NCBI GenBank assembly: GCA_964587725.1
Contig: CAZPLO010000003.1
Span: forward strand, 1,135 to 65,134
Length of the DNA: 64,000 nucleotides
Direction: 5' to 3'
Source: an uncultured archaeon
Lineage (GTDB): Archaea > Altiarchaeota > Altiarchaeia > IMC4 > SCGC-AAA252-I15
In this document: piece after piece, positions 28,830 through 59,882 of the stretch
Layout: the number at the start of each line of letters is the position of its first letter
How positions within the stretch are numbered: the first letter of the stretch is position 1
Program-made: the position numbers and the translations under genes
Notes under the pieces: model-generated
What the model was told of the DNA's origin: nothing
The model's database searches: none
The model's input: the letters and a program-made list of their open reading frames with translations, nothing else

Positions 28830-29662
28830 CCCAGCAGCCCCTTGCTGTTCTTCTCCTCTTGGGCCAGCTGCCGCAGCCGGTTCTGTTCCTGCTGGAGGTT
28901 CTGCATCTGTTCCTGCAGCGCCTCCTTCACTCCCTCGCTGCAGTCGCAGGAGTCCTTAAGCTGGTTGAGTTCCAGCAGCCGCTCCTGATTCTGCTCAACC
29001 TCCTCTTCTATATCGTCGGCGGCTTCGTCGTCGCCTCCGAAGAAAAACCGTGTGAGGCCGCCCCTCTTCTCAATCTTCTTCTCCGCATGTATGGTCTTCT
29101 GCACGGAGTTGTTGAACTTCCTCGCTATTTCTGAGATGTTTCGGCCTATGCCGCCTGTGAGGTTGTCCACCGCCAGCATGGCGTGAACCGCCTCCCTCAC
29201 CCTGTTCTGGTTGCGGTAGACCTTCCGGTCGTCTTCGCTCATGTTCTCGAGCTCCTGTTCCATAACCTGCTTTCTCTCCCGTATCATCTGCTTCAGATGG
29301 GTGAGGTTCGCGGCGTTCAACCCCGGACCCACGCCTTGTCCCTCGCCGGTGCCGATTCCCAGACCCCTGCCGGTCTGGTTTCCGCTGAGGCCGGGCGCGG
29401 TCTCCCATCCAGGGGACTCGTTGCCTGTCCTGTTCCCTGCAAGTCCGGGAGCGTTCTCTCGGCCGCTACTGTTCTGCAGCCCCGGCGCGCCTTCACGGCC
29501 GAGCCCATTCAGGCCGCCGTCCACGGCACCCCGGCCGTTCCCCTGCCCTGTCTGCACGCTGCCGTCGCCGGGGTTCTGAAGGTTCCCCAGGCCGGCCGCG
29601 TACGCGGTTGAAGCGGTTAAAGCCAACACCACGAAAACCGCCGAAGCCTTCGAATAATCCAT
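28814..29662 (-). CDS. Secreted protein with Gly/Pro/Asn-rich 13-aa repeats bearing N-glycosylation sequons, plus C-terminal coiled coil
   Basis: Signal peptide, then repeats GREGAPGLQNSSGRENAPGLAGNRTGNESPGWETAPGLSGNQTG. There are at least 9 NxS/T sequons. Q/E-rich coiled C-terminus. Confidence 0.4.
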   Translation of the reverse strand: MDYSKASAVFVVLALTASTAYAAGLGNLQNPGDGSVQTGQGNGRGAVDGGLNGLGREGAPGLQNSSGRENAPGLAGNRTGNESPGWETAPGLSGNQTGRGLGIGTGEGQGVGPGLNAANLTHLKQMIRERKQVMEQELENMSEDDRKVYRNQNRVREAVHAMLAVDNLTGGIGRNISEIARKFNNSVQKTIHAEKKIEKRGGLTRFFFGGDDEAADDIEEEVEQNQERLLELNQLKDSCDCSEGVKEALQEQMQNLQQEQNRLRQLAQEEKNSKGLLGWLWK

Positions 29663-38132: not shown

Positions 38133-38900
38133 ATGGCCTCCGTAGTTTCATTGGAGGATGTGAGCAAGTGGCTGGGCGACAAACTCGTGCTCGGCGGCGT
38201 GAACTGGAGTGTGTCTGAGGGAGAGCACTGGGTGGTGTTGGGAGCCAACGGCTCGGGAAAGACGACCATGCTCCGCATAGCCTCCGGCTACCTGTGGCCG
38301 ACCTCCGGCACGGTTTCGGTTCTGGGGCGTCGGTTCGGGTCCGTCGACCTCCGCGAGCTGCGGAAGAAGATTGGGTGGGTTACGTCGGCGCTGACGTCCA
38401 GGATTCCGCCCGGCGAACAGGCGTTGAATGTTGTTTTGTCTGGCAGGTACGCGAGCATGGGGCTGTATGACGAGCCGTCGGAAGCCGACAGAGGGAAGGC
38501 TGCGGGTATTCTCGAGTTCATGGATTGCGGAGAACTCGCGTGCAGGTGCTTTGGTGTTTTGTCGCAGGGGGAGCAGCAGCGCGTGCTGATCGCCCGTGCG
38601 CTGATGTCCGACCCGCGGCTGCTGATACTGGATGAGCCGTCCGCCGGCCTGGATTTGAAGGCGCGCGAGGGGTTTCTCGAATCAGTGGCCAAACTGACGG
38701 AGGAGCATACGGTGGCGTACGTCACACACCACATCGAAGAGATTATCCCTGAGTTCACGCATGTGATACTGCTGAAGGACGGCCGTGTGTTGCGCAGCGG
38801 CGTGAAAGAGGATGTATTATCCACCGGAAACCTGCGGGAGGCCTTTGGCGTCGGCCTGGAGGTTGATTTCAAGGGCGGCAGGTACTCGGTCAGGCTCTAG
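38133..38900 (+). CDS. ABC transporter ATP-binding protein (no adjacent permease)
   Basis: Walker A GANGSGKTT, signature LSQGEQQR, Walker B LILDEPSAGLD. Confidence 0.8.
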   Translation: MASVVSLEDVSKWLGDKLVLGGVNWSVSEGEHWVVLGANGSGKTTMLRIASGYLWPTSGTVSVLGRRFGSVDLRELRKKIGWVTSALTSRIPPGEQALNVVLSGRYASMGLYDEPSEADRGKAAGILEFMDCGELACRCFGVLSQGEQQRVLIARALMSDPRLLILDEPSAGLDLKAREGFLESVAKLTEEHTVAYVTHHIEEIIPEFTHVILLKDGRVLRSGVKEDVLSTGNLREAFGVGLEVDFKGGRYSVRL

Positions 38901-40083
38901 AACGCCTCCAAGCATAGTACAGGTATGCTGTGCCCATCAGCGCCAGCAGCAGGAACGCCCACAGCCACCCGCTGGAGTATATTATTTCGGTGGTGTTGTT
39001 GACTATGTTGAACAGTTTCTCCTGCACGTCCTTGAACCTGCGTCCCAGTTCCCTTACCGTCGGCAGCTTGATTCTGGCCACGGGTGTTTCAATAACAAAG
39101 GGTTCCTCAACGGTCACGTTGCTGCTGTTGGAGGCCACATGAAGTCTCCTGTTGTCTCTGACGTCCACCCTCACCTTGTATTCGCCTTCGTCCACGTCGT
39201 CGGTCGCGTCCACGTCCAGGTCGAATTCTGCGCCCCCGCTGTCGTCCACCGTCACCTCCCTGACCGTCCGGTCCCTGCCTTCGAAGCCTTCCGGGAGGCG
39301 GATGTCGACGCCGTAGGAGCCGGGCCAGCTGGCGTTCAGACGCACCCTAACATTGAACAGGTCCCCTCTGTCGACGCGGCCGGGGTTCTCCACGACAACT
39401 GAAACGTCGGGTAGGGTGCAGGGCCTGCACGGTCCGCCGCAGTCAATCCACTCCTCGCCCTGGTTCTGCCGGCCGTCGAAGCAGCCGGGTTCCGGAATGG
39501 TTGTTGTCGTGGTAGTGGACGTGGTCGTTGAGGTGGTTGACGTTGAGGTTGTGGAAGTCGTGGATGTGGTGGTGTAGAGTTCTCCCGCATGAGGGTACTG
39601 GAACAGCGTGGTGGTGGATGTGGTCGTCGTTCTGAGAGGCCTAGTGGTGGTGGTTGCGAACGTGGTGGTCGTATCCGGCATGCACTCGCACATGAAATCC
39701 CCTGTTTCAACGCACGAGCTCCCCGGCGGGCAGTCTCCGACGCATCCGCCTGCGAGGGTGTCGTGGAAGCAATAGTACTGTTGGGTGGTGGTGGTCTCGC
39801 ACGGCGGAGGATAGCATTTAAGTGTGATGTCGTCGACGCAGCACCCGCAGGAGATGCATTCGCCGGGGCTCTCGCAGGTGCAGTCGACGCAGCAGTCGTA
39901 TACTTCGTAGTTGTCGCTGGGGGTGCAGCCTGCGGCGGTCCACTCGCAGACTCCGCAGCTCAGGCACTGCGCCTCGTAGAGGCAGCTGCAGCGTATGCAG
40001 CATTCGTCTCCTGTTTTGAGGGACTGGGCTGTGGCTGCGGGGAGAAACGCCAGCAATGTGAGCAGGATTAGTGCACGCCTCAT
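38890..40083 (-). CDS. Cell-surface protein: Cys-rich N-domain (about 40 Cys), long poly-Thr linker, Ig-like/beta-sandwich region, C-terminal TM anchor
   Basis: Signal peptide, ECCIRCSCLYEAQCLSCGVCEW.., TTTSTTSTTSTS linker, C-terminal WLWAFLLLALMGTAYLYYAWRRSRA. Confidence 0.45.
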   Translation of the reverse strand: MRRALILLTLLAFLPAATAQSLKTGDECCIRCSCLYEAQCLSCGVCEWTAAGCTPSDNYEVYDCCVDCTCESPGECISCGCCVDDITLKCYPPPCETTTTQQYYCFHDTLAGGCVGDCPPGSSCVETGDFMCECMPDTTTTFATTTTRPLRTTTTSTTTLFQYPHAGELYTTTSTTSTTSTSTTSTTTSTTTTTTIPEPGCFDGRQNQGEEWIDCGGPCRPCTLPDVSVVVENPGRVDRGDLFNVRVRLNASWPGSYGVDIRLPEGFEGRDRTVREVTVDDSGGAEFDLDVDATDDVDEGEYKVRVDVRDNRRLHVASNSSNVTVEEPFVIETPVARIKLPTVRELGRRFKDVQEKLFNIVNNTTEIIYSSGWLWAFLLLALMGTAYLYYAWRRSRA

Positions 40084-40730: not shown

Positions 40731-41954
40731 CTAGTAGTCCGACAGCGTCTTCTGCCCGCCTTTATAGTATCTGTCTTTTTCACCTTCCAACGTGGGTCTG
40801 CCGTACATGCCTCCGCCGCCTGCGACGTACTTCATCCGCCCCTGGCGGAACAAATTCACTATGGTGCCGACTTCCCGGTCCGCGGCTATCACCTCCCCTA
40901 TGTCTGCGTCCACGAGCACGTTTATTTCGGAGCCGAAGCGTTCCACCAGCATGTCCCACCGGTCCTTAACCTTCTTGCTGGTTATGGTCTTCGTCTTCGT
41001 AGCCAGCGCGATGACTTCCGCCAACGGTATTATGTGTATGTACGGGGGCCGGTGGCTGGGGTGCCTGGGTTCGTCCCATGTCGCGAGATCGCTTATCCTG
41101 TCCGCCACACCCTTCTTTATGATGCCCCTGCACTCCGGACACCGTCTTTTGAGATTCAGAGCGTCCTCCCACCTGAACTTGAGGTAGCATCTGCTGCACG
41201 CCGTGATATGGTATTTCCCCTCCAGCGGGTTCAACCCCACGTTCAACGAGAACCCGCGTCCGCCGTCCCGCATTATGGCCTTCCGCATTTCATTGAAAGA
41301 CGGCTCCTTGACGCGTATGCGGTTGAATTCTCGGCCCAGCCGGTGGGGCCAGGGGCTGTGGCAGTCGCTGTTGCTCATGAACGTAAGGTCCTGCAGTTCT
41401 TCCACCCTGTCGGCGCGGCCGGTGTCTGCGCTCAAACCCAGCTCAAGGAAGCTGACGTGCTTCAGGTTGTCGCCGTAGCAGTCACGGAGCGAATCGTATT
41501 CCTTGTAGACGGCGGTCCACGGCGTGAACGCGTGCGACGGCCCAACCAGGCCGCCTGCGTCGACGACGTAGCCTACTATCTCCTCCCCGGTCAATGACAG
41601 GTTGGGTCTGCCGTCGGACTTCATGTTCGGCGAGAAACGGGATAACGCGTCGGCGAGGTTGTCCGCGGCCGTGAGAGACGGCAGCAGTATCACGTGGTGA
41701 ACCCGCTTCTTGTCCTCCACTTCAACCTGGACGATGAACCTGGTCTTAGAGTTTTCCGCACTGTAGAGTCCATTTTCCTCCACCAGGTTCTCACGCAGGT
41801 GCTTCCTCCACCTCGGATGCAGGGCGTCGGCGGTGGCGACGACATCCAACCCCTTCAGCGGCGCCTGCTCGGCCAGCAGCGGCACCGTCATGTTCTTGCT
41901 GGTTCCGCCGCTGTACCGTCCGTGGACGTGGAAGTCCGCGTCTAACTCAATCAT
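40731..41954 (-). CDS. Endonuclease Q-like (PHP domain plus C-terminal zinc finger)
   Basis: HVHGRYSGGTS..TADALHP (PHP metal site) and a C-terminal CSRC...CPEC. Length (407 aa) matches archaeal EndoQ. Confidence 0.55.
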   Translation of the reverse strand: MIELDADFHVHGRYSGGTSKNMTVPLLAEQAPLKGLDVVATADALHPRWRKHLRENLVEENGLYSAENSKTRFIVQVEVEDKKRVHHVILLPSLTAADNLADALSRFSPNMKSDGRPNLSLTGEEIVGYVVDAGGLVGPSHAFTPWTAVYKEYDSLRDCYGDNLKHVSFLELGLSADTGRADRVEELQDLTFMSNSDCHSPWPHRLGREFNRIRVKEPSFNEMRKAIMRDGGRGFSLNVGLNPLEGKYHITACSRCYLKFRWEDALNLKRRCPECRGIIKKGVADRISDLATWDEPRHPSHRPPYIHIIPLAEVIALATKTKTITSKKVKDRWDMLVERFGSEINVLVDADIGEVIAADREVGTIVNLFRQGRMKYVAGGGGMYGRPTLEGEKDRYYKGGQKTLSDY

Positions 41955-44914: not shown

Positions 44915-45520
44915 ATGTTCGCGGCCACCCTGTTCTTTTACGGGCAGCTGCCCGACAGAGTGGCTTCGCACTGGAGTATTAGGGGTGAAGTGGACGGCTA
45001 CATGGGCAGGTTCTGGGGTGCGTTCCTCATCCCGTTGATGACCGCCGCCCTGATGGTGGTGTTCAAGGTAATCCCCCGGATAGACCCGCTGCGGAAGAAC
45101 ATAGAATCATTCAAAGAATACTACTACGGGTTCGTGCTGGTGCTCGCATTGTTCCTGGCTGGCTTGCAGCTTCAGATTCTGCTGTGGAACGTCGGCGTCA
45201 AGGTGAGCCCGTCGGCTACGATGCCATTCGGCATCGGCATGTTGTTCCTCTATCTGGGGTATCTGCTCAACCATACCAAACGAAACTGGTTCGTGGGCAT
45301 CCGGACTCCGTGGACGCTGAGCAGCGACCGGGTGTGGGATAAAACACATGAAAAGGGCTCGGTGTTGTTCAAGGCGTCCGGCGCGATAGCGTTGGTGGGC
45401 GCGTTGTTCCCCGACCAAAGCATCTGGTTCATATTGGTGCCGGTGCTCGCCTCAACGGCGTACCTGTTCATATACAGTTACCTGGAGTATCAGAAGGAGC
45501 GGAAGCCTACTTCCCCTTGA
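44915..45520 (+). CDS. SdpI/YhfL-family (DUF1648) membrane protein
   Basis: HWSIRGEVDGY and NWFVGIRTPWTLSSDRVWDKTH motifs. Confidence 0.5.
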   Translation: MFAATLFFYGQLPDRVASHWSIRGEVDGYMGRFWGAFLIPLMTAALMVVFKVIPRIDPLRKNIESFKEYYYGFVLVLALFLAGLQLQILLWNVGVKVSPSATMPFGIGMLFLYLGYLLNHTKRNWFVGIRTPWTLSSDRVWDKTHEKGSVLFKASGAIALVGALFPDQSIWFILVPVLASTAYLFIYSYLEYQKERKPTSP

Positions 45521-46955
45521 GCAGGTACGTCGTCTTGCCGAGGACGTTGTCCAGTAGCGCTTTTGCGCCGCCGTAGTCGTGTATCATCTTCAGGTACTGG
45601 AGGCTCTGCCGGGGGTTCAGCGCGACCTTCATCATTATCTTGCGGCGGCACCGGTGCATCATCCCGCTGATTTCGACGCCGCTCAACCCAGGGTACTCCA
45701 CGACCGCGTCTTTTGTCGTGTAGTCCCGCCAGTCTTCAACGTTCAGCCACCCGTTTTCTTCTGCGAGGCGGTAGAATTCCGTGCCCGGGTAGGGTATGGC
45801 GACGCTGAACTGCGCCGTGTCGGTGCCAAGTTCGAACGCGAACTTCATGGTCTCCTCCATGGTCTCCCGCGTCTCCCCCGGGAGGCCGAACATGTATGTG
45901 GCGTGGGATTCGATGCCTATCCTCTTCAGCAGCTTCACCACCCGCTTCACCTCGTCGAGGTTCACGTGTTTTTTGATGTTCTTCAGGATTTCGGGGTTGG
46001 CGCTTTCCACGCCGAATTTTATGGCGACGCACCCCGCATCCTTCATCGCAACTAATGTATCCTCTTCGAGTTTGGCGTCGGCCATGCACGACCAGCTCAC
46101 CTTCAACCCCCTCTGCATTATTTCCTCGCATATCTTCAGCACCCTGTCCTGGTCTACGCTGAAGCTGCTGTCGTCGAAGTATATCTCTTTGGCGCCGTAG
46201 TTTTCCATCAGATACTGCATCTCGTCGACGACTTCTTTCGGCTTGCGGGCGCGGTAGCTCCTCATCCCGTAGAAGAGGTGGGGTTCGACGCAGTATATGC
46301 ACTGGTAGGGGCAGCCGCGGCTACTCCACATCTGCGCGTTCGGCGCGTGCTTGCAGAACGGGTCAATGTATTTTTCCATCGGCAGCTGCTCCCGCAGCGG
46401 ATACGGCATGCTGTCGACGTCCGCCAGCGGAGCCTTCTCGTTTACTATGGGCTTTTCGTCTCTCCTGCACCCGAGGCTCTTTATATCCGAGATGTCCCCT
46501 CCTTTCTCCAGCGCGTCGGCGAGCTGCAGCAGCGGCTGCTCATACTCATACGTTATTACGTAGTCCACGTATTCCTCTTTGAGGAGTTCTTCGGGGCGGG
46601 CGGTGGCGTGCGGCCCCGTCAACACCGTTGTAGCCAACTCTTTCGCCTTTCGCGTCCACATCAAATCGTTCCCTATCGACGGCGTAGACGTCTCGAACAC
46701 CACCAAGTCGGGATTCACGTCATCAATCAGCCGGAGAAATTCCGCATCCGACATCTCCTCGGCGATGCAGTCCTTCAAAACGACCTCGTGGCCGCCCTCC
46801 TTCAAAACGGCGGCGGCGTAGGCGAGGAAGAACGGGAACGGGTAATAAGGGAGCTGCTCCCGCTTCAATTTCAGGTGCGGCCACCTGCTGCCCGCGCGCA
46901 AACCCATTTTTTCGCCGTCGCTTATCCAGGGCAGGTTAGCCAGCAAAACCCTCAT
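45507..46955 (-). CDS. B12-binding radical SAM enzyme (class B RS, probable methyltransferase/modifying enzyme)
   Basis: N-terminal cobalamin-binding domain and SSRGCPYQCIYCVEP (CxxxCxxC). Confidence 0.7.
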   Translation of the reverse strand: MRVLLANLPWISDGEKMGLRAGSRWPHLKLKREQLPYYPFPFFLAYAAAVLKEGGHEVVLKDCIAEEMSDAEFLRLIDDVNPDLVVFETSTPSIGNDLMWTRKAKELATTVLTGPHATARPEELLKEEYVDYVITYEYEQPLLQLADALEKGGDISDIKSLGCRRDEKPIVNEKAPLADVDSMPYPLREQLPMEKYIDPFCKHAPNAQMWSSRGCPYQCIYCVEPHLFYGMRSYRARKPKEVVDEMQYLMENYGAKEIYFDDSSFSVDQDRVLKICEEIMQRGLKVSWSCMADAKLEEDTLVAMKDAGCVAIKFGVESANPEILKNIKKHVNLDEVKRVVKLLKRIGIESHATYMFGLPGETRETMEETMKFAFELGTDTAQFSVAIPYPGTEFYRLAEENGWLNVEDWRDYTTKDAVVEYPGLSGVEISGMMHRCRRKIMMKVALNPRQSLQYLKMIHDYGGAKALLDNVLGKTTYLLKGK

Positions 46956-47901
46956 CGTCTCCTATCTTTTGGTTCCACGCGATTAAATAGCCTGCCAGCG
47001 CCACCGGCGCCAGCGACAGCAGCAACAGCATCGCAGACAACGCTATCATGTGTTCGCGGCCGACGCCCATCAGCCCGAACAGAAACAGTATGGTGGCGTC
47101 CCGCGTCCCCAGTCCCATCACCGACAGCGGCAGCACCTCCGCCACCGATATGATGGGCACGAACATGATGAACATCCACCACTCCACCTCCAACCCTATG
47201 GCCTGTCCGAAGAAGTACGGCCGCGTGAAGATTATAACCCACCCCGTCAGGGTCAACGCCATGACCGTCCACTTCCTGTTACTGTCCCTGAACTCACCTA
47301 CCGTTTCATGGAATGTGCTGAACAGCTCACGGGTGTTCCTCCTGAACCGTTCGGGTATGAGGAAGGCATGCAGCGGCCTCAGGATTGTCATCGACAGCCG
47401 CTGGTTCAACGCCACCGCCAGCGCGCACACGACCGCGGCCGCAGGAACTGCAAGGGCAAGTATGCTGCCTGCTCCGCCAGCCAATGTGAACGCTAAGGCT
47501 GCAGACGCGGCTGCTGCTCCGATGAACAGGAACATGAAGTTTATTATCCTGTCCAGCAGTCCGACGGTGAACGCCTTGGTCAGCGACAATCCGGTGTCGT
47601 CCCTGATTCTCGTGACTTTGACGAAGTCCCCCGCCTTCCCCGGCGTAACAGCCCCGAAGGCGACGCCTATCATGTACGCCCTGAAAGCGTTCCAGTAGCC
47701 GATGGGGGAGTACGTTCCAACCAGGACCATCCAGCTGAGGCTCCTTACTAGGACCTCCAGTGTGACGAACGACAGCCCCATCACCAGATACGCGGGGTCT
47801 GCGTTCAAAATTATTTCCGCCGTCTTGCCCACGTCGACGGTCGACAGTATGCCGATGAACAGCAGCAGCCCGACAGCCGACAGATACCTCATCCACCTCA
47901 T
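46936..47901 (-). CDS. UPF0104 / flippase-like (LPG-synthase TM-domain family) membrane protein
   Basis: 8 TM, 321 aa. Confidence 0.5.
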   Translation of the reverse strand: MRWMRYLSAVGLLLFIGILSTVDVGKTAEIILNADPAYLVMGLSFVTLEVLVRSLSWMVLVGTYSPIGYWNAFRAYMIGVAFGAVTPGKAGDFVKVTRIRDDTGLSLTKAFTVGLLDRIINFMFLFIGAAAASAALAFTLAGGAGSILALAVPAAAVVCALAVALNQRLSMTILRPLHAFLIPERFRRNTRELFSTFHETVGEFRDSNRKWTVMALTLTGWVIIFTRPYFFGQAIGLEVEWWMFIMFVPIISVAEVLPLSVMGLGTRDATILFLFGLMGVGREHMIALSAMLLLLSLAPVALAGYLIAWNQKIGDDEGFAG

Positions 47902-50786: not shown

Positions 50787-51101
50787 ATGACTAAGAGAGA
50801 GAAGGAGCTGGACATCATGGGGTTCCTGGCGTCGAAGAAGTGGATACTCCTGGTGCTGACCGAACTCTACTTCCACGGCACCCAGCGGTTCAACGAACTC
50901 CTGGAGAACATGCGTGTGGTGAGCCCGAAGATATTGTCGCGGCGGCTGAAGGAACTGGAGGAGCGCGGCCTCGTGGTCCGCCGGAAGTTCAACGAGATCC
51001 CCCCGCGGGTCGAGTACACCCTGACTTCCAAGGGCATGGAGTTGGTGAAGTCGTTCGAGGGCATCGGGAAGTGGGCTATCAAGTGGGAGCGCGACCTCTA
51101 G
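50787..51101 (+). CDS. HxlR-family winged-helix transcription regulator
   Basis: KKWILLVLTELYFHGTQRFNELLENMRVVSPKILSRRLKELEERGLV. Confidence 0.7.
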   Translation: MTKREKELDIMGFLASKKWILLVLTELYFHGTQRFNELLENMRVVSPKILSRRLKELEERGLVVRRKFNEIPPRVEYTLTSKGMELVKSFEGIGKWAIKWERDL

Positions 51102-51624
51102 ACTCCAGGACCTCCGTGAACTCAGGCGTCCAATCCCTTTCCAGAATGTGTTTTCCGCCGGTCTGGAGCCAATCGACTATCGCTTCCACATCAACCCCTT
51201 CCGTGTTGTCCAACTCCAACACGTTCCCGCACCTTTTAAGGCTCTCATATAATATGACTCCTTCATATTCTGCTTCCAGGTTTTCCATAATCTTCCCGTC
51301 CGCGTAGCCGCGTTCCTTCATCCGTTTCTCCAGCAGGCGGGGGTCACACCGCAGCACCAGGACGTGGGTGGGGTCGAGTAGGTGGCTTAGCAACCCGTCC
51401 AATATGGTATTCGATTCCACTAGCCTCCAAACCTTCTCCTTCAGTCTGCCGGCGTCCACCACTTTGGTGTTCCTCTCTTCGTCGAACCTGTCGCACAGGC
51501 CTTCGCGTTCGACCAACAATGTCAATTCCATGACCTTCCACCCGAGGCGTTCCCCCAGTTTCCGGGCCAGCGTGGTCTTCCCCGTGCAGGGGGTGCCGGT
51601 GACCGCCAATACATTGTACGCCAT
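51079..51624 (-). CDS. P-loop kinase, Fap7/adenylate kinase isoenzyme 6-like
   Basis: VTGTPCTGKTT Walker A. 181 aa. Confidence 0.55.
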   Translation of the reverse strand: MAYNVLAVTGTPCTGKTTLARKLGERLGWKVMELTLLVEREGLCDRFDEERNTKVVDAGRLKEKVWRLVESNTILDGLLSHLLDPTHVLVLRCDPRLLEKRMKERGYADGKIMENLEAEYEGVILYESLKRCGNVLELDNTEGVDVEAIVDWLQTGGKHILERDWTPEFTEVLESRGRAPT

Positions 51625-51677
51625 TTTTTAACCGCTGAAGCGAATACTTTAACAGTATTTGGGGAGGCGACTATATT

Positions 51678-52019
51678 ATGTCCAACTGGAAGCTGCAGGT
51701 GCTGTTTTTGGCTCTGCTGGTGGTGTCGGATGCGGCAGCCGCCGCCACTGAGATGAAAGACATAGCCTGCAATGTCATCAAACCCATCTACGAAACCCTG
51801 AAGACCATCGCCCCCGCCCTGGTCCTGTTGATGTTCACCTACGGCGCCGTCAAGTACGCCCTCGCATCCGACGACCCCGGCGGCCGGAAGCAGGCTAAAA
51901 ACATCATGATACACGCCATCATCGCAGGCCTCATCATCGGCATCATATTATGGTTGATGGATGATGTTCTAGGACTCCTTAGCCAAGACTTGAAGAACTG
52001 TCTAGGCATAACGGCTTGA
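51678..52019 (+). CDS. Paralog 1 of the secreted two-helix hairpin family (SADDPGGRKQ loop)
   Basis: Sec-type signal peptide; mature IACNVIKP..helix1 APALVLLMFTYGAVKYALASDDPGGRKQAKNIMIHAIIAGLIIGIILWLM helix2..KNCLGITA. SD-like GGGAGG lies upstream. Confidence 0.6.
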   Translation: MSNWKLQVLFLALLVVSDAAAAATEMKDIACNVIKPIYETLKTIAPALVLLMFTYGAVKYALASDDPGGRKQAKNIMIHAIIAGLIIGIILWLMDDVLGLLSQDLKNCLGITA

Positions 52020-52083
52020 TGTTGAATCTGTTTGTTGTTTTTTTAACCTGTGAAGTGAATACTGTAACGGAGGCGTTGTTGTT

Positions 52084-52464
52084 ATGGTTAGGCGGTTGCT
52101 GGTTTTGCTGGCTGTTTTCACGCTGCTGGCTGTAGCAGCGTTTCCCGCATCCGCGGCGACAAACAAGTTGAAGGAAAACTTCTGTGAGATAGTGGTGTTG
52201 CTGCATAAGGTCCTGACGTATGTTGGGCCCACGATAGTGCTGCTGATGTTCCTCTACGGCGGCATCAAATACGTTTATTCCGCCGAGGACCCCGGCGGCC
52301 GGAAGCAGGCTAAAAACATCATGATACACGCGCTCATAGCGGGCATACTGCTGGGGCTCGCTGTGGTCATCATCGAGTTCGTGATCCCCACCATAAAAAA
52401 CGACATTGATGCCTGCTACAGGCTAGCTGGTGCGGGGGCCAGGGTCGACATTCAACCCACCTGA
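52084..52464 (+). CDS. Paralog 2 of the hairpin family
   Basis: Signal MVRRLLVLLAVFTLLAVAAFPASA; LLMFLYGGIKYVYSAEDPGGRKQAKNIMIHALIAG. Its 5' region including the signal peptide is identical to paralog 3. Confidence 0.6.
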   Translation: MVRRLLVLLAVFTLLAVAAFPASAATNKLKENFCEIVVLLHKVLTYVGPTIVLLMFLYGGIKYVYSAEDPGGRKQAKNIMIHALIAGILLGLAVVIIEFVIPTIKNDIDACYRLAGAGARVDIQPT

Positions 52465-52529
52465 TTAGACTCCTGGTTGGTTGTTTTTTTAACCTGTGAA
52501 GTGAATACTGTAACGGAGGCGTTGTTGTT

Positions 52530-52862
52530 ATGGTTAGGCGGTTGCTGGTTTTGCTGGCTGTTTTCACGCTGCTGGCTGTAGCAGTGTTTCCAGCATCCGC
52601 TAATATGGAAAAGAGCCTTGACGACACGCTCTGCGACATCCTGAAGGCCATAGGGTATGCGTTGGGAACCGTCGGCCCCATGCTTGTCGCATTGATGTTC
52701 CTCTACGGCGGAGTCAAGTACGTTTCTTCCGCAGACGACCCCGGCGGTCGCAAGCAGGGCAAGACCATATGCATACATGCGGTGATAGGCGGCATAATCA
52801 TAGCATTGGCTCACACGCTGGTGACTATGGTGGTTAATGTTCCATGCGACTTCTACTCCTGA
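52530..52862 (+). CDS. Paralog 3 of the hairpin family
   Basis: Same leader as paralog 2; LMFLYGGVKYVSSADDPGGRKQGKTICIHAVIGG. Confidence 0.6.
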   Translation: MVRRLLVLLAVFTLLAVAVFPASANMEKSLDDTLCDILKAIGYALGTVGPMLVALMFLYGGVKYVSSADDPGGRKQGKTICIHAVIGGIIIALAHTLVTMVVNVPCDFYS

Positions 52863-52918
52863 CCGCGCAAACGGTTTTTTAACGCATAAGCGGAATATAT
52901 AACAGCGAGGGGCTTCAA

Positions 52919-53284
52919 ATGCGTATCAGCGGTTTCAGGGTCTTCCAGCTAACAATAATCGCATTATACCTGCTGTCTTGTTTTTCAACGGCGGTTGACG
53001 AGTTCGCTTTAAGGGATTCCTTCTGTGGCGTAATCAACGAAATAGGCGACGTATTGGAGAAAGTCGCCCCGGTCCTGGTGCTGCTGATGTTCACCTACGG
53101 CGGCGTCAAATACGTGTTCTCCGCGGACGACCCCGGCGGCCGGAAGCAGGGGAAGATGATATGCATATACTCCATTATCGGCGGAATCCTGATAATCCTC
53201 ACATGGGAGATGATAAAGCTAATATTCGGTTCCCTACCCCAAAATTTCCGATGCCCTACAACACCTTGGATGTCGAACCTATAG
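52919..53284 (+). CDS. Paralog 4 of the hairpin family
   Basis: LLMFTYGGVKYVFSADDPGGRKQGKMICIYSIIGG. Confidence 0.6.
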   Translation: MRISGFRVFQLTIIALYLLSCFSTAVDEFALRDSFCGVINEIGDVLEKVAPVLVLLMFTYGGVKYVFSADDPGGRKQGKMICIYSIIGGILIILTWEMIKLIFGSLPQNFRCPTTPWMSNL

Positions 53285-53425
53285 GACTAATATTCTGTTC
53301 CATCCCATATGATCTCTGGTGCCCTAAGGGTTTTTACTGGCCATGATTTCTAGGCAGCCCCAAAGTCCGTCAAAATCTTTTTTTAACCTGTGAAGCGAAT
53401 ATTTAATCACCTCAACGGTGAACCC

Positions 53426-53758
53426 ATGAACAGAGACAACCTACTCCATATTCTCATGCTGGTGGCGGTTCTCGCGGCATCCGTCGACGGAGCATCCGCT
53501 AACCTGCACTCCAAGGTCTGCCCTATTCTGGAGGCGTTCATCGACGTGTTGGAGACCATAGCTCCGGCGTTGGTTCTGCTGGTGTTCACCTACGGCGGCG
53601 TCAAATACATTTCGTCGGCGGACGACCCCGGCGGCCGGAAGCAGGGTAAATCCATACTGATACACGCCATAATCGGCGGCATAATAATAATTATAGCCCG
53701 GTTCGTCGTGGGGATTGTGTTCTCAGGATGGGGCGACCAATGCCCGGGGGTTCTCTAA
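53426..53758 (+). CDS. Paralog 5 of the hairpin family (first gene of a five-gene operon)
   Basis: LLVFTYGGVKYISSADDPGGRKQGKSILIHAIIGG. The track start is 53390; ATG at 53426. Confidence 0.6.
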   Translation: MNRDNLLHILMLVAVLAASVDGASANLHSKVCPILEAFIDVLETIAPALVLLVFTYGGVKYISSADDPGGRKQGKSILIHAIIGGIIIIIARFVVGIVFSGWGDQCPGVL

Positions 53759-53760
53759 CC

Positions 53761-54135
53761 ATGCGGGGTTTATATTCAAACACCAGGGTGGGGTTGAAGG
53801 CGGCGGCGGCCGTCCTTCTTTTACAGTCGGTGTCAGCCACCACGGACATTGCCTTGGCTTTCAAGAATGCGCCGTGCATGATAATCGGCCAGGCATACGG
53901 TGTCGTCAACACGGTCGGCCCCGCCCTGATACTGGTCATGATGTTCTATGCGGTGGCAAAGTACGCGTACAGCGCGGACGACCCCGGCGGCCGGAAGCAG
54001 GCCAAAACCATATTCATCCACGCCATCATCGCGGGTATGTTCTTCGCACTGGTGGCCATAGTCTTCAGGATACTGGAAACCAACATTAGCTGGCTGTTCA
54101 AGGCCGGGAATCTCTGCTCGGGGGTTACTCTATGA
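53761..54135 (+). CDS. Paralog 6 of the hairpin family
   Basis: LVMMFYAVAKYAYSADDPGGRKQAKTIFIHAIIAG. The ATG is 3 nt after the paralog 5 stop. Confidence 0.6.
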   Translation: MRGLYSNTRVGLKAAAAVLLLQSVSATTDIALAFKNAPCMIIGQAYGVVNTVGPALILVMMFYAVAKYAYSADDPGGRKQAKTIFIHAIIAGMFFALVAIVFRILETNISWLFKAGNLCSGVTL

Positions 54136-54482
54136 GGACAAGAAACCTCATGCATGCTCTGACCCTGGTTTCACTGCTTACGTCCGGATCCAGTGTGTCG
54201 GGCGCATCGAACGCCATACACACGGTGCCGTGCAAACTATTGGGTGGCCTGTTCTCGGCGCTCACCACCATCGGCCCGTCCCTGGTGTTGTTGATGATGG
54301 TCTATGGAGCCGCCAAGTACGCGTTCAGCGCGGACGACCCCGGCGGCCGGAAGCAGGGGAAGACCATATTCATCCACGCAATCATCGGGGCCGTCATTAT
54401 GGGGCTCATATACATAATAGTTAAGGCTGTATTGGGTGCCTCATACGGTGACTATTTATGTTCGGGGGTGAAGTTCACGTAA
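54132..54482 (+). CDS. Paralog 7 of the hairpin family
   Basis: LLMMVYGAAKYAFSADDPGGRKQGKTIFIHAIIGA. Start overlaps the previous stop (ATGA). Confidence 0.6.
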   Translation: MRTRNLMHALTLVSLLTSGSSVSGASNAIHTVPCKLLGGLFSALTTIGPSLVLLMMVYGAAKYAFSADDPGGRKQGKTIFIHAIIGAVIMGLIYIIVKAVLGASYGDYLCSGVKFT

Positions 54483-54483
54483 A

Positions 54484-54831
54484 ATGTCGCTCGCACACAA
54501 GATTAAGTGGGTGGCGCCAACCGTCCTAATGTTCCTGTTGGTGTTAAGCCTGTTGGCGCCCACGGTGTCTGCATCCTACCTGGGCCCAATAACAACATTC
54601 TTAAAATCTTTAATCAACTCTATTCGCATAATAGGGAACTCAATCGCAGTCGTAATGTTCATCTACGGGGCGGCCAGGTACGTCTACGCATCCGATGACC
54701 CCGGCGGCCGGAAGCAGGCCATAAGCATATGCATAGCCTCGGTTGTGGCGTTGATAATCATCTTTATAGCGGAGTCTGTTATCGGCGCTATCTGTGCGTC
54801 GATGGGGCCTGACTGTAATCCTGTTAGCTAA
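54484..54831 (+). CDS. Paralog 8 of the hairpin family
   Basis: VVMFIYGAARYVYASDDPGGRKQAISICIASVVA. Confidence 0.6.
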   Translation: MSLAHKIKWVAPTVLMFLLVLSLLAPTVSASYLGPITTFLKSLINSIRIIGNSIAVVMFIYGAARYVYASDDPGGRKQAISICIASVVALIIIFIAESVIGAICASMGPDCNPVS

Positions 54832-54832
54832 A

Positions 54833-55150
54833 ATGAGGTATAAAATAGCGTATGCGGCGGCTTTGCTGGCTTTAATCTCAGCCGGCGTTCAGGCCACAAC
54901 CGTCGACGCAGCCGGCATAATAGCGAATGTCATATGCGACCTGGTGCCTGAGGTCATAAACCTGGCTTACGTTCTAGCGTTGCTGATGTTCATCTACGCG
55001 GGCGCCAAGTACGCGTTCAGCGCGGACGACCCCGGCGGCCGGAAGAAGGCGAAGTCGATTGCGGTCCAGGCGATTGTGGGTTTCCTGATAGTCGGCGTGT
55101 CGAAGGCCCTGGTGGAGGCCATAGCCGGTGCAGGCAACGTCTGCCCCTAA
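54833..55150 (+). CDS. Paralog 9 of the hairpin family
   Basis: LLMFIYAGAKYAFSADDPGGRKKAKSIAVQAIVGF. ATG at 54833 (track 54794). The stop overlaps the aglB stop convergently. Confidence 0.6.
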   Translation: MRYKIAYAAALLALISAGVQATTVDAAGIIANVICDLVPEVINLAYVLALLMFIYAGAKYAFSADDPGGRKKAKSIAVQAIVGFLIVGVSKALVEAIAGAGNVCP

Positions 55151-58020
55151 CCTGTTAAAATCGTCTCTGAAGCACTGGTGGTGGATGCGAAGCCGTCGTA
55201 GCTTATCTCATAGGACCTTACGAACCCCCAGCTGAAGTCTCCGTCGGGGCTGCCGTCGCCGTCGTAGTCTGGAACCAGGCGGAAGTGCTCCAGCGGCTCG
55301 ACCTCCCTGTTGTACAGCCCCAAGGCCCTGTACTCATCCAGGTACCTGCCGAGGTACAGGCGGGTAATCATGAAGTCGTTAAACTCTTGTGGAACGTAAA
55401 CAAGGGTTCTGAACTGCGGCATCCTGCAGATGCTCCCCTCCGGCAGCTGCTTCCAGTTCAACGCGCAAGCCATTATACTGGGTATTCTCTGCTCGTCGTA
55501 TCCCACCAAGGGGACTACGCCAAGGAGTGATGCGTCGTTGGCGTCCCTCCAACTGTTCCACGGTATCCTGTTCCCGTACGGGCCGATGACGGTTATGTCC
55601 GCTATGCTGTCCTCCACTATCTCGAACACTACTCCCGCGATGTAGCCCTGGCACCCGAATACCACCTGTTTGACTCGCCTGAAGTTGCCTTCGTCGTCGA
55701 CCACCAGCTGCTCCTCCACCTGGCTCTGGTCCGGGAGGAAACTGCACTGGACGTAGTTTTTGAAGGACCCTGGAGTTACGTTCTCTATGACGCCGGTGGC
55801 TATGAAGTGCAGTGCGCTGCCCTTCGGCACCATAGTCCAGTCTATGGTCACGTAGTTCAACCCCATCCCCCGTTTCTCGTAAACCTCGTTATACTCTTCA
55901 ACTATCTTGAAAGCCTCTTCCTCGCTGGTCTTGTTGACGAAGAAGCGGGCGACGTCCTGTATCTCATAGTAGTCGGCCTGCAGGTTGTCTATGAGCACCG
56001 GCCGCTGGCTCACGCTGGTGAACCAGTGGCCGTAGTCCCACCACGTCAGTATCGCGTCCCCCGGGTCGGTGTTCTGCTCGTGCCATTGGAGTGCGGGCTC
56101 CCAGTAGTATCTGTCGCTGGTGGCGCCCATGTGCATGACCTGGTAGCCCACGAACTTGTTATACTGCGTAGCCCCAAGAAGGGGGACGTAGAACACGGGT
56201 ATGAACAGCACCATGATGGCGCCCACCACCCGCAGGCTCTCCAAATCCTCCCTTTTAACCACCGCGAACAATCCTATGGTGGCTCCCAATGCTGTCACGG
56301 CTGTGCTGGACGCGAAAATCCATGCGCTCTTATGGTATGCCCCCCACAGCATCGGCAGGCTCCACGTAAGCAGGAACAGCGCCCCCACGCTACCCTTCCT
56401 GTACACCAGGTACGCGAGCACCGGAATCATCATCAGCCCGTACAGTAATGCTATGCCGTAGCGGTTGTAGCCCTGCGCCAGGAACTCCTGGAACGACCCG
56501 GCAAGCGGGTTCTGCTCCGAAACGGTCATGTGCACGACGCTCCTGGTTCTGGCGGACATCAACCCGTTGATGACGAAATCTATCATACTGGAGGGGGTGA
56601 TGAAGAATGTGAACGCCACTGTCCCAGCCACCAAGGCGACCACACCCAAAACCATTATGTTCTTACCCATCAGGTTCACCGTCCTGCTCTCCACCGAATC
56701 CCCTGATACCGTGTCCTCCCCGTACATGCGCACCCTCAATAACTCCAGTACGATGGACGCGCCCACAGCCGCTATTATCGGGTATACGGCGTTGGGCGTC
56801 ATGTCCGGGAGCGCCGGCAGCCCGCCCCTCTCATGGAGTATGAGGCCGCCGCCCAACTGCGCAATAAAAACGGGAATCAGTATGTACGGTAGCGCCTCCA
56901 CGGCGTTGCGTTTGTGCAGGAAGTTGACGAACGCGTACGCGGTCCCGAAGGCGCCCAGGGTGAGGAACGCGTACTGGGCTCCCCCCCACGCCACATTGAG
57001 CATGAGGAACGCCACGCCCGAGTAGGCAGCGTATTTGAAGCTGCGGCGGTGGTATCCCGCGAAGAACAGGTAGAGGGTGCTGACGAGCAGGAACATTCCC
57101 AGGGCGTCGTCTTCGCTGTTCGTCGCCACAGCCTTCATCGCGAAGGCTGGGCTGAGTATCAGCATGAACGCGGCCATGAACGCCGCCACCTTGTTGTACG
57201 GCCGCATGTCCGTGAACATCTCCTTCACCAGCAGGTACATAATCACCACCGTGAACGCCGATATGGCGCCGGGCAGCAGCATCGCCACGTCGTGCAGGCT
57301 GATTCCGAACGGCTCCAGCGCCAGGGCCAGCGACGAGTAAAGGACGGGCGTCATCATCCTCGTCGACGACTGGTCTAAGCCGTACATGCCCGCACGCCCG
57401 CCCATTGCAGACGGGTCGTTGCTGTGGGCCAGCCCTCCTAGCAGGGGATAAACCAGCGGGTCGAATTCAGGCGGGTATCCGCCGTCGTATATGCCCCGCA
57501 TCCACTTGTAATGCCAGTAGGGGTCGAGCGCGGCCAAATAATCTGTTTTCGCAGGCGCCATGTGGGTTATCATCCCCGACAGGAACAGCGCCGCCACGCC
57601 GGCCACCTCAGCCTTCACTACCCCATGGTAGGAGAGCGAGTACCCTAAAGCGAACACCGCCGCCACCGCGCTGAAGTACGTGTAGTCCTCGTTCAACGGG
57701 AACCCTATGGTGTTGCTGTAGTGTGAAAACAGCGCCGTTAAAAAAAGCAGGACGGGTATGCCGATGCTCCAGTAGTCCTTCTTCAGCCTCTTGTCTCTCA
57801 GAATAGTGGCGGCGGTCCACAGGAACAGCGCCGCCATCATCAATGGTGTGCTGTCTCGCAGGAACCCCCCACTCAACGGTTTAACGGACGCCAGAACCAG
57901 TGCGGCCAGCGGCGCAAGGAACAGGGGCCTGTCAAGGTGTTCGCCGACTTTCCCGAGGCCGTCGACGGGGAGGCTGACGGAAACCTCCTTCTTCTTTTTC
58001 CTCCTCTTAGAAGCCATCAC
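55147..58020 (-). CDS. aglB: Archaeal oligosaccharyltransferase AglB (STT3 homolog)
   Basis: 957 aa, 13 TM N-terminal domain, WWDYGHW (WWDYG) catalytic motif. Confidence 0.85.
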   Translation of the reverse strand: MMASKRRKKKKEVSVSLPVDGLGKVGEHLDRPLFLAPLAALVLASVKPLSGGFLRDSTPLMMAALFLWTAATILRDKRLKKDYWSIGIPVLLFLTALFSHYSNTIGFPLNEDYTYFSAVAAVFALGYSLSYHGVVKAEVAGVAALFLSGMITHMAPAKTDYLAALDPYWHYKWMRGIYDGGYPPEFDPLVYPLLGGLAHSNDPSAMGGRAGMYGLDQSSTRMMTPVLYSSLALALEPFGISLHDVAMLLPGAISAFTVVIMYLLVKEMFTDMRPYNKVAAFMAAFMLILSPAFAMKAVATNSEDDALGMFLLVSTLYLFFAGYHRRSFKYAAYSGVAFLMLNVAWGGAQYAFLTLGAFGTAYAFVNFLHKRNAVEALPYILIPVFIAQLGGGLILHERGGLPALPDMTPNAVYPIIAAVGASIVLELLRVRMYGEDTVSGDSVESRTVNLMGKNIMVLGVVALVAGTVAFTFFITPSSMIDFVINGLMSARTRSVVHMTVSEQNPLAGSFQEFLAQGYNRYGIALLYGLMMIPVLAYLVYRKGSVGALFLLTWSLPMLWGAYHKSAWIFASSTAVTALGATIGLFAVVKREDLESLRVVGAIMVLFIPVFYVPLLGATQYNKFVGYQVMHMGATSDRYYWEPALQWHEQNTDPGDAILTWWDYGHWFTSVSQRPVLIDNLQADYYEIQDVARFFVNKTSEEEAFKIVEEYNEVYEKRGMGLNYVTIDWTMVPKGSALHFIATGVIENVTPGSFKNYVQCSFLPDQSQVEEQLVVDDEGNFRRVKQVVFGCQGYIAGVVFEIVEDSIADITVIGPYGNRIPWNSWRDANDASLLGVVPLVGYDEQRIPSIMACALNWKQLPEGSICRMPQFRTLVYVPQEFNDFMITRLYLGRYLDEYRALGLYNREVEPLEHFRLVPDYDGDGSPDGDFSWGFVRSYEISYDGFASTTSASETILTG

Positions 58021-58713
58021 TCACCTGCCGTATCTCCGCTCCGTGCCGCTGAAGTCGTCCAGTATCCTGGCCAGGTCCTCCTTCTCGAACTCAGGCCACA
58101 GCTTGTGTACGAAGTATATTTCGCTGTAGGCCGACTGCCACAGGAGGAAGTTGCTGAGCCGTTCCTCGGAAGTTCGTATGATGATGTCGGGGTCGCTTTT
58201 CACCCACAGGTTGGCCCGGAGGTTGTCTTCCGTAACCTCCACTCCATGCTCAACCATGTTTTTTATGGCGTTCAAGACCTCCTGTCGGCCGCCGTATCCG
58301 ATGGCCAGGTTCAACGTGAAGTTCTTGTAGTCTCTGGTGGCCTCCTCCAGCTTGGACAGGTTCGACACCATATCAGACGCCAGCTTCTGGTTGGGGCTCT
58401 GCCTTATCAGTGAGTCAATGTCTCCGCAGACGTTGACCCGCACCTGTTTTTCCCGGAGGTTCTTGTCCTTCAACCCCTTCTTCGCGTTTTTGTTGAAGGC
58501 CTTGAAGAGGGTGTTTATCTCCCTGCTGTCGCGGTTGCCGAGGTTCTCCAGAGACAGTGCATACAGTGTTACCTCGTCGACTCCGAGGTCGTAGCTCCAC
58601 TGCAGGAAGTCGTAGAACTTGTTTATGCCCATGTTGTACGAGCTCAGCAGGTTCCTTATGTGTTTCTTCAGCATGAACCTGCGGTTCCCGTCCGGAATCA
58701 CGCCCACGTGCAT
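58021..58713 (-). CDS. uppS: cis-prenyltransferase (UPP/dehydrodolichyl-diphosphate synthase family), complete with C-terminal RxG
   Basis: HVGVIPDGNRRF catalytic N-terminus. C-terminal FSGTERRYGR. Confidence 0.8.
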   Translation of the reverse strand: MHVGVIPDGNRRFMLKKHIRNLLSSYNMGINKFYDFLQWSYDLGVDEVTLYALSLENLGNRDSREINTLFKAFNKNAKKGLKDKNLREKQVRVNVCGDIDSLIRQSPNQKLASDMVSNLSKLEEATRDYKNFTLNLAIGYGGRQEVLNAIKNMVEHGVEVTEDNLRANLWVKSDPDIIIRTSEERLSNFLLWQSAYSEIYFVHKLWPEFEKEDLARILDDFSGTERRYGR

Positions 58714-58774
58714 TTTAAATAACTTAACCTCTGATGTCTAAAATATGTGCAAACATATAAATTAATAATATACT

Positions 58775-59248
58775 ATGGAAGTGCAGGTCTTGGACGCGTC
58801 CGCGATACTCCGCAGCACCATGGATTTTTCCCGCGGAAACTACCTGATTCCGCAGGCGGCGTATGCGGAAGTCTTGGACGGAACCGCCCGGGCCGCATTG
58901 GAGGATGGAATACGGAACGGCGACATAAAAGTGGCTGAACCGGCTCCCGAGGCGCTGGAGAAGGCGCGGGAGGCGGCTTCCGCCACAGGAGACGTCGAAT
59001 CATTGAGCGACGCGGACCTGCAGTTGCTGGCGTTGGCCCTGGAACACGCCGCCGCCGTCGTATCCGACGACTACGCCATACAGAACACTGCCGCCGAACT
59101 CGGCCTGGAGGTGGTCGCAACATCGGCAGACGGCATAAAAAAACACATCAGGTGGCGGTGGGTGTGCGGCGGCTGCGGGAAATCCATGGACGGGTCTGGC
59201 GTATGCGGCGTATGCGGCCACAAAGCTAGGAGGAAGCCTAGCCCTTAG
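58775..59248 (+). CDS. Nob1-like PIN-domain endonuclease with C-terminal zinc ribbon
   Basis: PIN acidic residues (VLDASAIL...SDDYAIQNTA) and CGGCGKSMDGSGVCGVCGH. Confidence 0.55.
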   Translation: MEVQVLDASAILRSTMDFSRGNYLIPQAAYAEVLDGTARAALEDGIRNGDIKVAEPAPEALEKAREAASATGDVESLSDADLQLLALALEHAAAVVSDDYAIQNTAAELGLEVVATSADGIKKHIRWRWVCGGCGKSMDGSGVCGVCGHKARRKPSP

Positions 59249-59882
59249 CCTGTTCCACATACCATCTGAAGGAGTCGTCCAAGTCCTCTTTCACGGCGTC
59301 CGGCCACAGCCGCTCAAAGACGTGCAAGTAGGCGTAGGCGCTCTGGTACGGCAGGAACCCGCTCAACCTGCTCCGGCCGCCCCACCGCACAATCAGGTCT
59401 ATCTCAGGTATCCTGTAGGAGTGCATCCTGTGCCTCAGCCCCACCCTGCCGAGGTCCCACTTGTAGTCGTAGTTCACCAGCAGGTTCAGCCGCATTGACG
59501 CGTTTTTGCTGTGCCTTCTGTTCACGTATTTCCTCAGTTTCTTGGGGAAAATCTCGGAGTCTCGTTTACCCACAATGTTGAGGGAAAGCCCGTCTATGTC
59601 GTTCAGCCGGTCCACCAGGTTGACTATCGACTTCGAATAGGATTCAACCTCATGCGGTTCTCGCTCCCTGCTGTAGGGGAGGAATCCGTAGGCGGTGACT
59701 TCATTGACGCCGCATTCCATGCTGTACGTCAGTATCTCAACCGCCCTCTCAACCGCCTTCCCGTAGGCTTTTCCGACGTCGACTCCGTTTTTCCTGGCCC
59801 ACCTGCGGTTGCCGTCCGGTATCACGCCCAGGTGCCCCGGCACCCTCTTTTCTTTGCTCATGTAGTCTTCAAATCGCACCAC
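59238..59882 (-). CDS. Second cis-prenyltransferase paralog, lacking the C-terminal RxG motif
   Basis: HLGVIPDGNRRWARKNG catalytic N-terminus. Ends ...SFRWYVEQAKG. Confidence 0.7.
   Translation of the reverse strand: MVRFEDYMSKEKRVPGHLGVIPDGNRRWARKNGVDVGKAYGKAVERAVEILTYSMECGVNEVTAYGFLPYSREREPHEVESYSKSIVNLVDRLNDIDGLSLNIVGKRDSEIFPKKLRKYVNRRHSKNASMRLNLLVNYDYKWDLGRVGLRHRMHSYRIPEIDLIVRWGGRSRLSGFLPYQSAYAYLHVFERLWPDAVKEDLDDSFRWYVEQAKG

Follow-up and report, generated by a model that had tools for sequence, protein, structure and literature searches.

The subject of this analysis is a tandem array of nine genes for small exported proteins in a 64,000-nucleotide (nt) stretch of contig CAZPLO010000003.1 from an uncultured archaeon of the Altiarchaeota. 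The whole 64-kb stretch is referred to as the window. The nine paralogs are consecutive among the open reading frames (ORFs) of the + strand, occupy positions 51678-55150 and can be aligned over their entire length. A hidden Markov model (HMM) built from them retrieves exactly those nine proteins from the window, with E-values from 1e-32 to 1e-46. At the DNA level they are a nine-copy direct-repeat family with identities of 63-83%, and identity among the proteins is 25-56%. ORFs, alignment and HMM all bear out a preliminary description of the DNA, in which nine small same-strand paralogs with a conserved loop had been recognised. The genes are given below with their lengths in amino acids (aa), their whole-protein HMM scores against two Pfam families, PF18895 and PF04956, and the ortholog classes, A to D, to which they are assigned further on.

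51678..52019, + strand: paralog 1, class A (class taken from the tree and the class consensus), 113 aa; PF18895 38.9 bits
52084..52464, + strand: paralog 2, class A, 126 aa; PF18895 33.7 bits; PF04956 25.6 bits, below the gathering score
52530..52862, + strand: paralog 3, class A, 110 aa; PF18895 49.1 and PF04956 30.1 bits, both above the gathering score
52919..53284, + strand: paralog 4, class A, 121 aa; PF18895 42.6 bits
53426..53758, + strand: paralog 5, class A, 110 aa after revision, opening a packed block of five genes; PF18895 39.9 bits
53761..54135, + strand: paralog 6, class B ('vPC' type, in the class B clade), 124 aa after revision; PF18895 26.0 bits; family HMM E=1.9e-40
54132..54482, + strand: paralog 7, class B, 116 aa, with a 4-nt overlap between its start and the gene 6 stop; PF18895 39.1 bits
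54484..54831, + strand: paralog 8, class C, 115 aa, mature N-terminus 'YLGP'; PF18895 36.0 bits
54833..55150, + strand: paralog 9, class D, 105 aa after revision; PF18895 30.5 and PF04956 29.2 bits, both above the gathering score

The starts of copies 5, 6 and 9 are most likely ATG 53426 (110 aa), ATG 53761 (124 aa) and ATG 54833 (105 aa), respectively, in view of the position of a promoter-like box, the tight packing of the genes and the gene-call lengths on record. Those lengths, 110 aa for P0006, 124 aa for P0007 and 105 aa for P0051, are those of the revised copies. The three starts had at first been placed too far upstream, and the size range is therefore 105-126 aa rather than 110-135 aa. 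With the revised starts the gaps between genes 5 to 9 are 2, -4, 1 and 1 nt, ie the last class A gene and the B, B, C and D genes are packed as in an operon.

Each paralog has a leader peptide, two helices, a DPGGRK loop and, in the mature protein, a cysteine at either end, copy 8 being the exception. Columns without variation in the nine-copy alignment include two tyrosines, D-P-G-G-R-K, an isoleucine and the C-terminal cysteine; the loop is constant and the helices and tails diverge. Cysteines had been reported at both ends of every copy. The C-terminal one is indeed present in all nine and the N-proximal one in eight, copy 8 having none at that place and two in its tail instead. By a heuristic check (hydropathy and -3/-1 sequence rules), nine copies out of nine start with a basic n-region and a hydrophobic h-region and have small residues at -3 and -1 about 20-30 residues from the start, in agreement with the Sec-type leader suggested earlier. 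In paralog 3, for example, the mature protein is predicted to start at N25, with cleavage between ASA and NMEK. Beyond the leader, hydropathy gives two hydrophobic segments in each copy. The leader is most likely cut by signal peptidase I, as suggested by the sequence rules and by fused relatives (see below) in which the repeat unit is the predicted mature part. The nine proteins together contain a single N-x-S/T sequon, in copy 6, and had rightly been called almost sequon-free.

PF18895 (T4SS_pilin; gathering score 26.6 bits) is above threshold in eight copies, and copy 6 falls short by 0.6 bit. PF04956 (TrbC/VirB2; gathering score 27.9 bits) is above threshold in copies 3 and 9 only; copies 2, 8 (26.1 bits) and 7 (14.8 bits) give sub-threshold matches and the remaining copies none. 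The PF04956 matches span nearly the whole model. The NCBIfam matches, to a Mycoplasma integrative and conjugative element (ICE) pilin-like protein and a pLS20 conjugation transmembrane protein, are all below cut-off. PF18895 is present in 117 of the 120 listed homologs. On these profiles we have very little doubt that the nine proteins are members of the VirB2/TrbC/T4SS_pilin family, the affiliation first proposed for them. The accompanying remark that they belong to no named family has to be dropped, since Pfam T4SS_pilin covers them and arrays of 2-11 such genes are on record for Patescibacteria (PMC12102498).

A different origin of the Pfam matches would be hydrophobic composition, the proteins then being secreted or membrane-active peptides of a toxin, bacteriocin or holin-like kind and not pilins. 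Low-complexity matches can arise with short hydrophobic proteins, and the copy below the gathering score and the uniformly sub-threshold NCBIfam matches would fit. We consider this very improbable in view of eight independent matches above a curated threshold, near-full-length TrbC matches and the incidence of PF18895 among the listed homologs. The array is, in addition, conserved in the core genome of the phylum, has no immunity or processing genes and is absent from viral and plasmid collections, as described below.

Structure prediction with AlphaFold gave the helical hairpin that had been expected, with a predicted local distance difference test (pLDDT) score of 81.5 for full-length copy 1 and of 89.5 for mature copy 3 (80-sequence alignment). 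In the latter the helices span residues 6-42 and 47-78, and a four-residue turn lies at the conserved motif. The features by which a VirB2-type protein is defined structurally are all present: a leader predicted to be cleaved, a pair of hydrophobic helices and, between them, a short basic loop. The superfamily assignment is nevertheless made because of the sequence profiles; the hairpin fold is compatible with it, not diagnostic. An archaeal type IV pilin or archaellin, whose short class III leader is removed by PibD/FlaK in front of a single hydrophobic N-terminal helix, is a poor description of these proteins, which have Sec-type leaders with AxA sites and two hydrophobic helices in the mature part. 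Neither T2SSE nor TadC genes were found among the scanned ORFs of the window, a scan which covered nearly all those of at least about 110 aa.

The cysteines were followed through 146 non-redundant family members. Both an N-helix cysteine and at least one tail cysteine occur in 138 of them, neither occurs in 6 and 2 are mismatched (Fisher p=4e-9, for sequences which are not phylogenetically independent). Class C holds both states, pair present and pair absent, and members with two N-side cysteines also have two in the tail. In the model the two positions are 31 and 35 residues from the turn and should therefore face each other. N-side and C-tail cysteines thus come and go as a pair, and the natural reading is that they would form a disulfide staple on the outer side, which strengthens an idea advanced from the nine copies of the window. 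The loop is as constant in the family as in the array, with DDPGGRK exact in 129 of the 146 members.

The surroundings of the array are those of an ordinary chromosome, with genes for cysteinyl-tRNA synthetase, argininosuccinate synthase and lyase, FttA, a proteasome subunit, riboflavin synthesis and primase. In addition there is a glycosylation island consisting of glycosyltransferases of the GT-C, GT4 and GT2 types, a B12-radical SAM enzyme and two epimerases and, beyond the array, aglB, two cis-prenyltransferases and a third epimerase; the neighbours named in the preliminary description are all among them. The immediate flanks are:

50787-51101, + strand: HxlR regulator, near the AAA_18 gene
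51079..51624, - strand: left flank, AAA_18 nucleotide-kinase-like gene, conserved
55147..58020, - strand: right flank, aglB (STT3-type oligosaccharyltransferase), conserved and convergent with the array

A scan for the loop motif in one genome per GTDB species found eight further archaeal loci, all in Altiarchaeota, Altiarchaeales or other archaeal metagenome-assembled genomes (MAGs), and every pilin homolog with a taxon name is 'Candidatus Altiarchaeota'. All eight carry an array of 4-6 copies beside aglB, the synteny that had been proposed as a check. Wherever a contig holds both flanks the order is AAA_18 kinase-like gene, array, convergent aglB, and two further look-ups agree. The AAA_18 gene has the equal position in the loci designated L002, L003, L006, L007, L008 and L009 and in a JGI contig. 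AglB of the eight loci is 46-60% identical to that of the window, and locus GC content ranges from 39 to 59%. No pilin relatives were found in IMG/VR or in PLSDB, the latter searched by tblastn with class D. Because the flanks are conserved housekeeping genes in nine genomes and the family is absent from these two collections, the array is an old, vertically inherited core-genome feature of the lineage, not the cargo of a mobile element. One match outside the archaea, in a Spirochaetia locus (L010, 10001-10066), covers the loop motif over 22 residues with E=4e-4 and was treated as chance.

Some details of the locus may be recorded here. The 3' end of paralog 9 overlaps the stop codon of the convergent aglB by 4 nt (55147-55150), and the same junction measures -4 to +8 nt in L002, L003, L006 and L007; it is so tight that there is no room for terminators. 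In L003, an Altiarchaeota MAG, HEPN-like, nucleotidyltransferase-like and 431-aa ATPase-like genes (labels which rest on reading the sequences only) lie between the AAA_18 gene and the array at 6944-9501. They make up a minor accessory insert, the locus being constant in other respects. Directly past aglB in the window (58021-59882) a PIN-domain gene stands between two cis-prenyltransferase genes, where related loci have a single one. The glycosylation island also contains, at 45507-47901, the B12-binding radical SAM enzyme together with an LPG_synthase_TM-type membrane protein. Further away, argininosuccinate synthase paralogs of 425 and 404 aa lie on both sides of the argininosuccinate lyase gene (16630-20692), and window ORFs of 280-400 aa without a Pfam family include 20694-21764, 28814-29662, 38890-40083 and 40731-41954.

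A total of 46 copies from the nine genomes were aligned and placed in a neighbour-joining tree, which resolved four ortholog classes in the order A(n)-B(n)-C-D. Class D is the last gene of every array and forms one clade, with a mean within-class identity of 48% against 32-34% to the other classes. Class C is the penultimate gene, also one clade in nine genomes, with a mature N-terminus 'YL..' and often no cysteine. One or two class B ('vPC') genes precede C and D, and one to five class A genes precede B, five in the window and 1-3 in the other genomes. The smallest array is A-B-C-D, and that of the window (A x5, B x2, C, D) is the largest among the nine genomes. At the level of sequence, this shows that the four classes are not interchangeable copies.

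The class A genes are further distinguished by an octamer, TTTTTAAC, which has five occurrences on the + strand of the entire window (51625, 52040, 52486, 52876 and 53380), each preceding a class A start codon by 43-53 nt and each followed by a conserved GAAGCGAATA-like element. Class A genes in near relatives are preceded by a similar box. TTTTTAAC looks like a dedicated TATA-like promoter element of this class. Three of the boxes, and a duplicated segment which contains the other two, are:

51625..51654, + strand: promoter-like box 1 (TTTTTAACCGCTGAAGCGAATACTTTAAC), which precedes gene 1 by about 53 nt
52876..52905, + strand: promoter-like box 4, upstream of gene 4
53380..53409, + strand: promoter-like box 5, inside the GTG-started ORF of the preliminary description
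52030..52154, + strand: 125-nt segment, copy 1, with promoter box 2 (52040) and, from gene 2, the initial 71 nt (signal peptide)
52476..52600, + strand: 125-nt segment, copy 2, with promoter box 3 (52486) and the part of gene 3 that encodes the signal peptide

Since box 5 lies inside the GTG-started ORF, ATG 53426 is favoured as the true start of gene 5. The 125-nt segments of genes 2 and 3 are 98% identical, and the remaining parts of the two genes are about 65% identical as DNA and 56% as protein. This difference makes local gene conversion the likely explanation of the tract.

Gene conversion of this kind, an individual promoter box for each A gene, a copy number of class A that differs between genomes and a constant loop between diverging helices and tails would all suit a device for variation, in which interchangeable major pilins are expressed alternately and change the surface properties or the range of partners. 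Other arrays, those of Patescibacteria and the VirB2 paralogs of Anaplasma and Bartonella, have been interpreted alike (PMC12102498). We think this improbable for the array as a whole. One-to-one orthology holds for classes B, C and D, which keep a fixed order in genomes whose GC content runs from 39% to 59%, and this argues for non-redundant roles; the exposed regions are very short, and no invertible or silent-cassette structure was seen. Variation could hold for class A alone, and would then be compatible with the pilus reading set out below.

An exhaustive profile search recovered 6074 relatives with E<=1e-3, of which 336 reached E<=1e-10 and 23 reached E<=1e-30. Its top matches are long proteins of up to 1775 aa (P0121-P0138, P0254-P0256) in which 4-16 hairpin units are fused head to tail behind a single leader; one member of the cluster is annotated Candidatus Altiarchaeales. 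These polyproteins have the loop variant DDPGAR and the cysteine pattern C..xC ... CxC, some with cysteine-rich tails, and their loci are housekeeping regions (UbiX-UbiD-AcnX or MTHFR neighbourhoods). Proteins of 240-1034 aa adjoining them join a weak or clear pilin domain to cysteine-rich or PKD ectodomains. The main features are:

L011 2544-4235; L012 3706-7212 and 7349-9715; L015 10001-15328; L016 5005-9153: polyprotein ORFs
L014 12994-22901, - strand: ectodomain-pilin cluster with T4SS_pilin domain
L017 1-9885 and 12854-15958: ectodomain-pilin clusters with T4SS_pilin domain

An artefact of gene calling under an alternative genetic code was considered for the polyproteins and rejected, as they are uninterrupted table 11 ORFs in L011, L012 and L015. 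A repeat number of 5n or 5n+1, ie one pentameric pilus layer per protein, was dropped after a motif count gave all numbers from 2 to 13. The head-to-tail fusion argues for units which lie side by side with their N- and C-termini out. The L014 and L017 clusters contain no ATPase gene, and their hairpin has the appearance of an anchor that fixes surface proteins in the membrane.

To our knowledge, all those superfamily members that have been characterised form pili. Ca. Southlakia epibionticum ML1 has six tandem VirB2-like pilins, which are essential and part of a type IV secretion system (T4SS) locus (PMC10633639, PMC12857230), and in Patescibacteria a pilin gene was near virB4 in only 1135 of 1948 assemblies (PMC12102498). 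For these reasons the reading we prefer, tentatively and with slightly less than even confidence, is that the array encodes an extruded hetero-oligomeric, lipid-associated pilus or tube. Precursors would be inserted by Sec and lose their leader to give a two-helix membrane hairpin of about 80-100 residues, with both termini outward and joined by the disulfide, and with the acidic-basic loop S-A-D-D-P-G-G-R-K-Q-x-K in the cytoplasm as long as the protein resides in the membrane. Class A would supply the main, abundant subunit and the other three classes minor or specialised ones, all four packing laterally into one tube of conjugative-pilus type. Its loops would line the lumen and touch the head groups of lipids, in the way seen in solved conjugative pili (PMC9905601). 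An extracting VirB4/VirB6-like machine would be encoded away from the array, and the structure would likely serve cell-to-cell contact or the transfer of macromolecules across the envelope.

Several results weigh against a pilus. Among those ORFs of the window that were scanned, Pfam brought up no gene for VirB4, VirB6, VirB3/8, a coupling protein or a relaxase, as had been noted earlier for VirB4 and VirB6. No T4SS genes, VirB4 included, were found within about 10 kb of the array in the eight other Altiarchaeota loci, which is a local test, and VirB4, VirB6 and relaxase genes were not found in 14 related loci. The array lies among housekeeping and glycosylation genes and not on a mobile element, and the viral and plasmid collections are without relatives of it. 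Fold searches do not discriminate pilins, as the hairpin matches helical hairpins of any kind: the nominal best match in Foldseek, not significant, is ATP-synthase subunit c, a ring-forming hairpin, and the CedA1 pilus (8dfu) is at rank 24 with E=3.5. The family profile had no match at E<=10 among PDB chain sequences. In the fold searches none of VirB2, TraA, CedA1 and TedC stood out. Lastly, hairpins that are fused or bear ectodomains cannot be drawn out as single pilins. The polyprotein loci have no VirB4-like ATPase, a Walker-A search having found only a T2SSE-type ATPase 3.4 kb away in L014.

The same observations are what would be expected if the proteins belong to the pilin family and make no pilus, the classes A to D assembling without a T4SS machine into a membrane-resident hetero-oligomeric ring, channel or scaffold, a core component of the envelope. 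The conserved position by aglB and the glycosylation genes in nine genomes with no ATPase or VirB6 nearby would be natural for such a component. With 4-16 hairpins behind a single leader, some relatives can only be polytopic membrane proteins, others use the hairpin as the apparent anchor of PKD or cysteine-rich ectodomains, and four fixed classes fit a complex of defined stoichiometry. The subunit c match points the same way, without being significant. Some archaeal c-subunits are themselves fused multi-hairpin rings, and in the outer membrane of the archaeon Ignicoccus a small helical protein, Ihomp1, forms pores. On the other side, no characterised PF18895 or PF04956 member is known to act in this manner, the absence of T4SS genes was established for the neighbourhood of the array, the nine Altiarchaeota loci go back to one ancestral arrangement and count as one observation, and the polyproteins may come from other genomes than the array. 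We regard a ring or channel as a serious alternative, though less probable than a pilus. Its setting would be the envelope of a lineage whose characterised member has two membranes (PMC4460559); that relative is taken, for this reading, to be without an S-layer. A more specific version appears rather doubtful to us: that in Altiarchaeota and related archaea a VirB2-type hairpin detached from T4SS has become an envelope building block, the four classes, or in relatives a polyprotein of up to 16 hairpins, forming a lipid-filled ring or conduit without a VirB4 motor. In a cell with two membranes it could link or supply the outer one, and its genes would be those of the core N-glycosylation and envelope locus.

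VirB2-like pilin arrays are an unexplained hallmark of ultrasmall uncultured bacteria, essential in one case, and the same pilin family is now seen in an archaeal phylum as a conserved feature of the core genome with an unusually clear architecture. The four classes, their fixed order, the loop, the cysteine pair and the fused relatives lead to predictions on subunit roles, topology and packing. If it is true that the genomes which carry the array are without VirB4 and VirB6, conjugative-type pilins would function independently of type IV secretion, and this would bear on the organisation of the envelope in archaea with two membranes.

The closest counterparts are in Patescibacteria, where 441 tandem arrays of PF18895 pilin genes have been counted (PMC12102498). 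Those arrays, including that of Southlakia and the 'Sec secreted array' of TM7x, have the same Pfam family and consist likewise of tandem hairpins with Sec leaders which diverge in sequence and are conserved in structure; many of them, too, are not adjacent to virB4. The present array differs in its Altiarchaeota host, in never being next to T4SS genes in nine genomes and in its conserved aglB/glycosylation locus. Its copies, moreover, fall into four classes of fixed order and have a DDPGGRK loop that hardly varies and a pair of cysteines that co-vary. No published description of such arrays was found for Altiarchaeota, and a search for publications on Altiarchaeota with VirB2, T4SS or pilins gave nothing relevant.

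TrbC of RP4, VirB2 of Agrobacterium and TraA of F share the leader, the two hydrophobic helices and the short basic loop. In contrast to TrbC and VirB2, seven of the nine window copies are below the PF04956 threshold, there are no linked VirB3-B11 genes, the termini are probably disulfide-linked instead of free, and there are several classes instead of one pilin. CedA1 and TedC are archaeal VirB2-like helical hairpins (PMC9905601; PDB 8dfu); TedC has a signal-peptidase-I leader, and Ced and Ted pili contain stoichiometric lipid (PMC9905601). There is, however, no detectable sequence similarity to them, a family profile without PDB chain match included, and the VirB4-like CedB/TedB and VirB6-like CedA/TedA which are neighbours there are absent here. 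Anaplasma and Bartonella have, as cited in PMC12102498, several tandem VirB2 paralogs per chromosome, which are interpreted as antigenic or host-range variants of intracellular bacteria. Three of the four window classes, by contrast, belong to a free-living archaeal lineage and are conserved there as one-to-one orthologs. The polyproteins, finally, have the same hairpin unit with the loop variant DDPGAR and the same cysteine pattern as the array, and differ from it in fusing 4-16 units behind one leader, in the ectodomains of some and in their other chromosomal sites. What is already known, then, is the named family and, for Patescibacteria, the tandem arrays (PMC12102498); what appears to be new is the four-class architecture in fixed order, the location at the side of aglB without T4SS genes, the co-varying cysteine pair and the polyprotein relatives.

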